The position numbers and the translations under genes are program-made. From the IMG/VR virus record IMGVR_UViG_2880412407_000002: DNA of 64,000 nt. One strand, written 5' to 3'. Positions 1 to 64,000 of this stretch are shown piece after piece. The stretch comes from a virus (lineage: Duplodnaviria; Heunggongvirae; Uroviricota; Caudoviricetes). Position 1 is the stretch's first letter; each line of letters opens with the position of its first letter. The notes under the pieces are model-generated. The model had not been told where the DNA came from. It ran no database searches and worked only from the letters and a program-made list of their open reading frames with translations.

Positions 1-717
1 GCCGGTACCACTCTGTGGGTTTACAACGGCAAGGGTGATGCTTATGCAAACCCGTTGTCAGACGATGACTGGCAGCGACTGGCTAAGGTGAAGGATCTGA
101 CGCCGGGCGAGATGACGGCAGAACCCTACGATGATAACTACCTGGATGATGAAGACGCGGACTGGACCGCGACCGGGCAGGGGCAGAAGTCTGCAGGAGA
201 TACCAGTTTTACGCTGGCCTGGAAACCGGGAGAAGAAGGTCAGAAAGGGCTTATAGGCTGGTTTGAAAGCGGGGATGTGCGGGCCTATAAAATCCGTTTC
301 CCAAATGGCACGGTGGATGTGTTCCGTGGCTGGGTCAGCAGTATCGGTAAGGCCGTGACGGCGAAAGAAGTGATCACCCGCACGGTGAAAGTGACCAACG
401 TGGGCAAACCTTCTGTAGCGGAAGAACGCAGCAAAATTACGCCGGTCACTGCGATTAAGGTGACGCCGACATCCGGTACGGTGGCAAAAGGGAAAACAAC
501 CACCCTGACGGTTTCTTTTGAGCCGGAAAGTGCAACCGACAAGACGTTCAGAGCGGTTTCCGCCGATCCGTCGAAAGCCACCATTAGTGTGAAAGATATG
601 ACAATTACGGTAAACGGCGTGGCGACAGGTAAGGTGCAGATCCCTGTGGTGAGCGGAAATGGTCAGTTCGCCGCAGTGGCTGAAGTCACCGTTACTGAAG
701 CGGGCGCTGCAGGGTAA
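1..717 (+). CDS. V: Major tail protein V, 5'-truncated by window edge
   Basis: Near-identical to the complete copy at 49549..50301; Ig-like C-terminal region; lambda gene order. Confidence 0.9.
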
Positions 718-730
718 ACGGAGGTCATAC

Positions 731-1153
731 ATGTTTCTGAAAACAGAACAATTTGAATATAACGGTGTGTCCGTCACGCTTTCCGAATTGTCTGCGCTGC
801 AGCGGTTTGATTATATAAAGTTTGTTTCAGACGCAGAACAACAGGAGACAACGAAGCATGATGTCGTGCACATTAACCAGCGATATCTGGAAACGGCATC
901 CCTGCTTGTGGCGATGTCGCTATGGCATTCCCATTCCCTCAAAGGCACTCTGGCCTCTCCGGAGACAGAGATGCAGCAGATCCGCCGTGAAGTGATGCTG
1001 GGATGGCCTGCTGATGCACTGAATCAGGCAACGAACCGGGTGCTTTATCTTTCAGGTATGCTGGATAACCGGCACGATGCCGATCCTGAACCAACCGGGA
1101 AAACAGAAGCGACTGAGCCGGTAACATCAAAAAAGCATTCGAAGGCGAGCTGA
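731..1153 (+). CDS. G: Tail assembly chaperone G
   Basis: MFLKTEQFEYNGVSVTLSELSALQR start; position between V and H. Confidence 0.85.
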   Translation: MFLKTEQFEYNGVSVTLSELSALQRFDYIKFVSDAEQQETTKHDVVHINQRYLETASLLVAMSLWHSHSLKGTLASPETEMQQIRREVMLGWPADALNQATNRVLYLSGMLDNRHDADPEPTGKTEATEPVTSKKHSKAS

Positions 1154-1488
1154 ACTTTGTCCTGAAACTGGCGCGTGAGATGGGGAGAGCCGACTGGCGC
1201 GCCATGCTTGCCGGGATGACATCCACCGAATATGCCGACTGGCGACGTTTTTACTGCACGCATTATTTTCAGGATACCCAGCTGGATATGCATTTTTCCG
1301 GGCTGACGTACGCCGTACTCAGCCTGTTTTTTTGCGATCCGGATATGCATCCGGCGGATTTCAGCCTGTTCGCTCCGGAGGCAGAGGAAGGGCAGGCGGA
1401 GACGCCGGACGAAAATGATGTACTGATGCAGAAGGCGGCGGGCCTCGCCGGTGGAGTCCGTTTCGGGGAGGAGGGAAGGAGGTTGTGA
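731..1488 (+). CDS. T: Tail assembly protein G-T, made by programmed -1 frameshift
   Basis: T frame (1180..1488) is -1 relative to G and overlaps the G 3' end; slippery A_AAA_AAG in the G zero frame. Confidence 0.7.
1129..1135 (+). promoter_or_regulatory. Putative -1 ribosomal slippery heptamer A_AAA_AAG for G-T
   Basis: Codons AAA (1130-1132) and AAG (1133-1135) are in the G frame, just before the G stop. Confidence 0.6.
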
Positions 1489-1531
1489 CAGTTATTGATG
1501 GTATCAGAGGACATTTCAGGAGGTGACCACG

Positions 1532-62708: not shown

Positions 62709-62783
62709 AAAGCCGATACAGTGCGTGGTGAGGCCGCTGCAAATTCGGTGTGCTGATGGGACGAGGGAAAAATTTGTGGATGA
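62650..62783 (+). repeat. Third, truncated copy of the 3' end of the 89-aa ORF (recombination scar)
   Basis: Aligns to 12426..12569 and 61801..61944; translates to GIIPEQDRVITQVVILGADKKPIQCVVRPLQI. Confidence 0.7.
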
Positions 62784-62837
62784 CATTTGTTGTGGACCTT
62801 TAAGTCTGGAGTTCAAATTAAAACAGGGAGCTTTATT

Positions 62838-63419
62838 ATGCCATTAACCTCAGATATTAATTCATCTTCGTTCCATCTTGGAATGGAGGTTCTTCGTGCT
62901 CAAGTTGCAGCCACTGGGCGTGGAGAATTTACAATGGGTGGTGAAACTGTCAGAATTGAATATAGTCCAACAGATGGGCGCTTTCTGGCCAGCGATGGCA
63001 CTGGGGGATTATTTACTGAATTATTGCTTTTAGGGTTCAATAATGGGCCTCAAGCTCTTGGCGAGAGAATGTTAAGTATTCTTTCAGGATCAGATGCAGG
63101 TGAAACACAATCGCAAGTGACTCCTCAGGATAAAATATATCAATGTAAGTTTTCTGTTAATACAGAGAGCCTCCAGTGTCCCTCTGATGCAACTCGATGC
63201 CCAATTATACTGGAAACACCAGAAGAAGGGGTATTTGTCAAAAATTCAGATAGTTCAGCAGTATGCACTTTATTTGATGTTGATGCACTTTCTCGCGTGG
63301 TTAATGACGGTTCAGTTCACCCTCTGACACGAGCTCCAATAACCCCATCAATGATTGTTAAACCAGAAGAGTGTAAATATGACCCTGCAAGGGGAAGCTT
63401 TATTATAAAAGATAGTTAA
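62838..63419 (+). CDS. Putative type III effector, NleG-like (U-box-type C-terminus), tentative
   Basis: 193 aa, AT-rich, in the effector locus after tail fibre genes; family assignment from recall only. Confidence 0.45.
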   Translation: MPLTSDINSSSFHLGMEVLRAQVAATGRGEFTMGGETVRIEYSPTDGRFLASDGTGGLFTELLLLGFNNGPQALGERMLSILSGSDAGETQSQVTPQDKIYQCKFSVNTESLQCPSDATRCPIILETPEEGVFVKNSDSSAVCTLFDVDALSRVVNDGSVHPLTRAPITPSMIVKPEECKYDPARGSFIIKDS

Positions 63420-63619
63420 GATGTTTCAAATGAAACAATATTAACTTCCGATAATTTATATAAAAACACCACAGGCATTCGGGGCCTGTGGTTGGTAAAA
63501 CAATATAATACGCGAGTTATTTTTCATGAGCTGGAGAGAAAACAATCAAGGTAAGTGGTATTATTTCACAAAATACCGGGCACTTTCTGGTGCCGCATCG
63601 TTCAGAGCTTCGGTGTATA

Positions 63620-64000
63620 ATGAATGAAATACGTAGTAACCCTGTAAAATTTCTGGAAGAGCATTTAATTCTTAATACACAGCGCTATGCCCATCATGAT
63701 GAGACATCTTTAATTACAGTTAATATTACAAGAGAGGATGGCTTGTTAAGACTAAAAGAAACGGAATATGATATGGCTGGTAGTGATTATATTCTGTTTA
63801 CAGCTATGCGTGATACTGATAGTCCGGAGCGCTTTGATGCACCTGCAGTTGTAAGCTTGAGTAATCAGTGTATAAGCCTCCGGCGAAATGATATTTCTCA
63901 AACTATCCAGCAAAGTTCACCGTTATGGCTAACTAATCAGCAAAGCGGCTGTAGTGTTCTTATTGTTCGCCATGGATTATCAGAATCTGGAGAACAGTAG
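63620..64000 (+). CDS. Hypothetical protein, 3'-truncated by window edge; possible effector
   Basis: ORF from MNEIRSNPVKF continues past the window end; AT-rich. Confidence 0.3.
   Translation: MNEIRSNPVKFLEEHLILNTQRYAHHDETSLITVNITREDGLLRLKETEYDMAGSDYILFTAMRDTDSPERFDAPAVVSLSNQCISLRRNDISQTIQQSSPLWLTNQQSGCSVLIVRHGLSESGEQ

Follow-up and report, generated by a model that had tools for sequence, protein, structure and literature searches.

Nine private one-base indels in a two-prophage segment of Escherichia coli O121:H19 type: probable consensus errors beside one inherited frameshift

Are the many broken reading frames in the window analysed here, a stretch of 64,000 nucleotides carrying two sets of lambdoid tail genes, true pseudogenes, or do they reflect errors in the determination of the sequence? 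The original prediction, made from the letters alone, had listed at least eight such breaks, mostly at homopolymer runs, and had left the choice between pseudogenes and artefacts open, counting artefact as a serious alternative. After comparison with close relatives, the question is answered in two ways: the artefact reading is strongly supported for nine of the ten breaks, all of them private to the window, and the pseudogene reading is supported only for the gene with a run of seven A residues.

In the RefSeq comparison, the 64-kb window is about 99.96% identical to E. coli O121:H19-type chromosomes, the nearest record being that of strain 2015C-3107 (NZ_CP027317.1, 5018441-5082444), and it is evidently a chromosome segment of E. 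coli O121:H19 type. The gene content was read off the annotation of the 2015C-3107 record, and includes the following features.

1 to about 12.6 kb: lambdoid prophage A, tail module only (V, G, T, H, M, L, K, I, J, lom, stf)
Between the tail module of prophage A and prophage B: espK
Integrase at about 15.2 kb to stf at about 61.9 kb: prophage B, a second lambdoid prophage, complete
Listed after stf of prophage B: nleG effector gene

Prophage B is arranged in the order of integrase, early genes, DUF968/RusA/Q, three tRNAs, an esterase of the SASA family (nanS-p-type), lysis genes, terminase and head genes, tail genes and stf. O121:H19 is known to carry tandem prophages, and eleven complete genomes of this type are listed (PMC8767318). 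For one published complete genome, that of RM8352 (CP028110), the assembly contains a large mis-oriented segment and coverage gaps (PMC7717575). In the literature on O121:H19 genomes, we found no statement about pseudogenes.

All of the frame breaks in the original prediction were confirmed at their coordinates by the ORF list, the run coordinates and the sequences of relatives. In the six-frame ORF list, overlapping fragment pairs are present for H copy A, lom copy A, stf copy A, the DUF968 gene, the esterase gene, H copy B and J copy B. The break in the DUF968 gene, previously given only as possible, is real, and one further frame-breaking indel, absent from the earlier list, was identified in the head decoration gene, bringing the total to ten one-base changes. 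Nine of these, distributed over eight genes, are private to this assembly.

2692..2695, plus strand: H copy A (tape measure), G4 versus G5 in relatives, splitting 1532..2833 from 2746..4176; product 433 aa in the window, 881 aa after repair
10708..10710, plus strand: lom copy A, G3 versus G4 in relatives and in copy B; 133 aa, repaired 199 aa
11754-11757, plus strand: stf copy A, first deletion, G4 versus G5 in relatives
11780-11782, plus strand: stf copy A, second deletion, G3 versus G4 in relatives
29867..29871, plus strand: DUF968 gene of prophage B, A5 versus A6 in relatives; 253 aa, repaired 349 aa
35171..35175, plus strand: SASA-family (nanS-p-type) esterase, A5 versus A6 in relatives; 231 aa, repaired 645 aa
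46710..46711, plus strand: head decoration gene, CC versus CCC in relatives; altered C-terminus, 108 aa, repaired 115 aa
52175..52179, plus strand: H copy B (tape measure), A5 versus A6 in relatives, splitting 51167..52369 from 52309..53745; 400 aa in the window, 859 aa after repair
57985..57986, plus strand: J copy B, extra T (TT versus T), splitting 56148..58142 from 57877..59628; 664 aa in the window, 1159 aa after repair

Except for J copy B, in which one further residue differs, the repaired products of all eight genes are full-length and identical to the proteins of relatives. The addition of one G to H copy A yields an 881-aa protein identical to that of 2015C-3107, GTVSS-020 and 2014C-3599, and both repairs within stf copy A, 26 nt apart, convert the product of 269 aa in the window into one of 437 aa, which all four O121 genomes examined share without any difference. 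The lom protein is likewise 199 aa in a draft assembly with an identical allele of J copy A. The earlier observation that copies A and B differ by a single base in a homopolymer holds for lom and stf, for which copy B contains the extra G at all three sites; H copy A and H copy B are too diverged to align at their break sites.

The same 64 kb was fetched from four independently sequenced O121 genomes, 2015C-3107, GTVSS-020, 2014C-3599 and 2002-3211, and every difference was tabulated. At all nine sites, the four genomes mutually agree on the other length, indicating that the window alone carries the nine one-base indels. In the PGAP annotation, the eight affected genes are intact in GTVSS-020, 2014C-3599 and 2002-3211, and also in 2015C-3107 except for the esterase gene. 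The exception is due to a break at a different run (G5 versus G6, window coordinates 36256-36261), found only in 2015C-3107. The RefSeq record of this strain contains three private homopolymer indels of its own, at window coordinates 21185, 36256 and 42547, two of which lead to PGAP calls of 'frameshifted' for the esterase and terL, both being intact at these positions in the window and in the other three genomes. The presence of two assemblies from the same clone, each with its own changes in run length, is as expected for consensus error. Isolated private substitutions in the window number only three, two of which are transversions, apart from a patch within stf copy B described below.

The claim that neither prophage could make tails stands only for the sequence as written. 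In the relatives, the genes of prophage B are intact except for the esterase and terL of 2015C-3107.

For three of the sites, those in H copy A, J copy B and H copy B, the search was extended to 5,426 complete E. coli genomes in RefSeq, using queries of 71 bases centred on the site, for which one gap pushes the identity below 99%. All three sites are located in multi-copy sequence, as judged by the number of places per genome. The window allele was detected in none of the 640 records carrying the H copy A site and in none of the 4,044 records carrying the J copy B site. At the H copy B site, it was detected in a single record out of 1,227, that of the O145:NM strain FWSEC0002, in which each of four adjacent tail genes (G, T, H and the gene for the major tail protein) carries the flag 'frameshifted'; this points to a local accumulation of errors in that assembly more than to a shared allele. 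Apart from this match, the run lengths of the window were found in no RefSeq complete genome. At the protein level, the truncated products of J copy B, H copy B and lom copy A were absent from 153 billion public gene calls. The intact J copy A allele is on record in 2015C-3107 and in two NCBI draft assemblies, beside a 199-aa lom and an 881-aa H.

The distribution of the indels was then compared with the composition of the window. Bases in runs of four or more make up 7.6% of the window, yet seven of the eight deletions fall there (P ~1e-7), the eighth being in a run of three. The ratio of nine private indels to three isolated private substitutions is equally skewed: the probability of nine or more indels among 12 changes is ~2e-7 if indels constitute 10% of mutations and ~6e-5 if they constitute 20%. 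An indel share of about 20% is that of mismatch-repair mutants. Two other features carry less information. All nine private indels are located in coding sequence, which is uninformative because about 90% of the window is coding. No private indel lies in the 17-kb interval from espK up to the early region, against an expectation of about 2.4, a number too small to reveal concentration in repeats.

Taken at the level of assembled sequences, the nine private indels are very probably errors of sequencing or assembly and not mutations of the sequenced isolate. We favour this reading because they are private to the window, near-absent, at the three sites searched, from the population at large and accompanied by almost no substitutions. 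These features, together with the restoration of the genes by one-base repair and the excess of indels over substitutions, are directly observed, and the cause is inferred from them. The nine breaks would then be consensus errors of the source assembly, eight short runs having been read one base short and one read long. Errors of this kind are left by long-read (or other run-length-sensitive) sequencing, and persist where repeated prophage sequence blocks effective polishing. In the order of the sites listed above, the true lengths would almost certainly be G5, G4, G5, G4, A6, A6, C3, A6 and a single T. With these lengths restored, both tape measure genes, J copy B, lom copy A, stf copy A, the DUF968 gene, the esterase gene and the head decoration gene would be intact, and prophage B structurally complete.

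Homopolymer indels that split genes are documented as the main residual error of long-read assemblies (PMC12007338). The breaks in the window resemble the gene-fragmenting errors addressed by Kastor and Homopolish (PMC12007338, PMC8011154) in being one-base indels in base runs, mostly deletions, that split genes into adjacent ORFs, are private to one assembly, can be mended with the help of close relatives and are called 'frameshifted' by PGAP. The window differs from these cases in two respects: the indels have spared its longest runs, of 7-8 nt, a pattern less usual in older Nanopore data, and one of the changes is an insertion at a single T.

The sparing of the longest runs deserves a separate remark. 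The window contains 22 runs of at least seven bases, none of which is affected, as would hardly be expected of in vivo slippage with a steep dependence on length; the probability of this sparing is at most 0.002 if each added base raises slippage five-fold or more, a figure which is model-dependent and should be taken as soft evidence. Such sparing is also atypical for Nanopore error, and counts against an artefact on that particular platform.

The chief alternative is that all nine indels are real in this isolate, representing a very recent pseudogenisation of structural genes of the prophages through slippage at replication, possibly in an isolate deficient in mismatch repair (a mutator). 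Real mutations, too, are frequent in homopolymers, and every event in the window is in or beside a base run, the known substrate of slippage. Frameshifted defective prophages are moreover common in EHEC, and the A7 break described below is an example. None of the nine indels is present, however, in the four clone-mates, nor, for the three sites tested, in thousands of genomes beyond the FWSEC0002 record at H copy B. The ratio of nine indels to three isolated substitutions reverses the mutational expectation even for mutators, and two of the three substitutions are transversions, whereas loss of mismatch repair is expected to give transitions. Slippage would furthermore have left the 22 longest runs untouched while striking stf copy A twice within 26 nt, and the density of 1.4e-4 indels per base, if extrapolated, implies about 760 frameshifts per genome. 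On this balance we regard real mutation as improbable. In its specific form, a recent burst of run slippage in one O121:H19 isolate that inactivated the tape measure genes of both prophages together with J, lom, stf, the esterase and others while adding almost no substitutions, it is a little more improbable still; if true, it would imply that prophage DNA had been subject to a mutational process with an unusual bias towards indels.

A mixture may also be considered, in which the culture was heterogeneous at the runs, or in which some of the nine indels are real and the others are errors. Nothing supports it directly; the patch within stf copy B does indicate something beyond simple run miscounting in this assembly. 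Against a mixture, appreciable heterogeneity of length within one culture would require longer runs than those of 3 to 6 bases, and all nine indels are alike, each being private and mended by one base. We consider it very unlikely.

The tenth frame break, in an early-region gene, behaves differently from the nine consensus-error candidates.

20242..20780, minus strand: ECs_1063-type early-region gene, frame change at an A7 run (T7 on the plus strand, 20511-20517)

The in-frame reading at the run is ACA AAA AAA TTG, with a stop at 20391 and an annotated product of 129 aa (20391..20780). Beyond the run, the -1 frame remains open as far as 20242 and encodes a plausible protein; a product of 179 aa would result from a run of A8 or from a -1 shift at the heptamer A AAA AAA. 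No difference exists between the window and its O121 relatives in this gene, and at least 385 complete genomes, the Sanger-finished one of O157:H7 Sakai (Sp4, ECs_1063) among them, carry the sequence with 100% identity. Because of this identity, the A7 break is evidently a genuine, old and inherited frameshift of this prophage lineage and not an artefact of assembly. The homologue in ETEC1701, with 81% identity, is a single ORF of 186 aa with one more base at the A7 position, and the homologues in Stx phages, with 31% identity, run in one frame across the site (a single piece in tblastn). The protein matches no Pfam family.

A conserved programmed frameshift was considered for this gene and is not supported, the ETEC1701 and Stx-phage homologues both being single-frame. 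It is a smaller possibility that -1 slippage at the A AAA AAA heptamer may yield an additional, longer product of the gene.

Programmed frameshifting is known within the tail modules themselves, since lambdoid tail modules use one programmed -1 frameshift, from G to GT. Two slippery heptamers, at the equivalent position in copies A and B, were identified in the window.

1129..1135, plus strand: slippery heptamer A AAA AAG at the end of G copy A
50722..50728, plus strand: slippery heptamer G GGA AAG at the end of G copy B

These heptamers are the programmed G to GT -1 frameshift sites of lambda-like phages, at which the change of frame is genuine and functional; as in the gpG/gpGT system, a slippery heptamer is located near the end of G in both tail modules. 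In contrast, the nine indel sites show neither such a signal nor such conservation, and the two G sites were not among the breaks listed earlier. The possibility that the nine breaks represent functional recoding, or contingency tracts that switch tail genes by phase variation, could be suggested by the canonical heptamers in both modules and by the in-frame A AAA AAA heptamer of the A7-run gene, but it is exceedingly unlikely: all relatives are single-frame at the nine sites, where no X XXY YYZ heptamer is present, the broken state is conserved in no other genome (FWSEC0002 at H copy B being the sole match), the tracts are only 3 to 6 bases long and vary in length only in the window among the relatives, and, for the A7-run gene, diverged homologues are single-frame.

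The finding of nine probable consensus errors is an ordinary matter of data quality, with mainly practical value and no new biology. If taken at face value, the sequence would make two EHEC prophages appear incapable of forming tails and of being transmitted, and would add the nanS-p-type esterase, lom and others to the pseudogenes; such errors carry over into comparisons of pan-genomes, prophage integrity and virulence genes. Since even the RefSeq record of 2015C-3107 contains private frameshifts in terL and the esterase, clone-mates or reads should be consulted before a prophage is called complete or incomplete in an STEC genome rich in repeats.

One further private feature of the window, not an indel, was found in the second copy of stf.

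60671..60961, plus strand: patch of nine private substitutions in stf copy B

The patch forms a clean tract identical to a third stf paralogue located about 1.5 Mb away in O121 genomes, while its flanks keep the stf copy B allele. Conversion from stf copy A was considered as its origin and rejected: only 8 of the 17 differences between copies A and B in the zone are switched, whereas the third paralogue matches exactly. The patch may have arisen by true gene conversion from one prophage to another, or else repeats may have been confused with each other when the sequence was assembled or polished.

In addition to the frame breaks, about 35 C-terminal residues of the copy B T protein have no counterpart in T of copy A, a gene given as an incomplete pseudogene in the annotation of each of the four O121 genomes examined. 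This truncation is real and shared, and is the only such defect of prophage A seen here. The truncated T and the A7-run gene (ECs_1063 in Sakai Sp4) resemble the pool of defective prophages in EHEC, for example the Sp prophages of Sakai, in that their defects are inherited and shared. The nine private indels differ from such inherited decay in being common to no relative.

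Homopolymer indels were also found in a public record used for comparison. The RefSeq record of the O121 strain 2015C-3107 carries its own private indels at three positions, listed here in window numbering with its own run length versus that of the window.

36256-36261: G5 versus G6
42547-42552: G5 versus G6
21185-21189: C4 versus C5

Because of these private indels the esterase and the large terminase are called 'frameshifted' by PGAP in 2015C-3107, unlike in the window and the three other O121 genomes, where both genes are intact. The A5 allele of the run at 52175-52179, within the tape measure gene H of copy B, is also present in E. 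coli O145:NM FWSEC0002 (RefSeq), in which four tail genes in succession, those for the major tail protein, G, T and the tape measure protein, are each flagged 'frameshifted'. This region (L014; NZ_CP031919.1 3548846-3553916) is probably another prophage stretch rich in errors in a public assembly.

The T gene of copy A (1180-1485) lacks about 35 C-terminal residues in comparison with T of copy B; the annotation of all four O121 genomes examined lists it among the pseudogenes, as incomplete. This loss is a genuine defect of prophage A, common to the relatives. For the programmed −1 frameshift from G into GT, the two tail modules have slippery heptamers at the equivalent position that differ in sequence, A AAA AAG (1129-1135) versus G GGA AAG (50722-50728).

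One further frame change was located in the early region of prophage B.

20242-20780, minus strand: ECs_1063-type gene, frameshifted, A7 run at 20511-20517

The frame changes at the heptamer A AAA AAA, which lies in frame, and at least 385 genomes, Sakai Sp4 among them, carry exactly this frameshifted sequence. The ETEC1701 homologue is intact (186 aa), and distant homologues in Stx phages read in a single frame. Judging from the heptamer, low-level −1 slippage may yield a putative 179-aa product.

Nine private substitutions form one cluster in stf of copy B.

60671-60961: clean tract, 100% match to a third stf paralogue of the O121 genomes
NZ_CP027317.1 3483296..3484609: example of this paralogue, about 1.5 Mb distant in all O121 genomes

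The tract represents either inter-prophage gene conversion or repeat cross-talk at the assembly stage. Two isolated private non-synonymous substitutions, which may be true variants or errors, were also detected in the window.

24282: CAG to CTG, repetitive Glu/Gln stretch of a replication (DNA-binding) protein
57799: GAC to GGC, J of copy B
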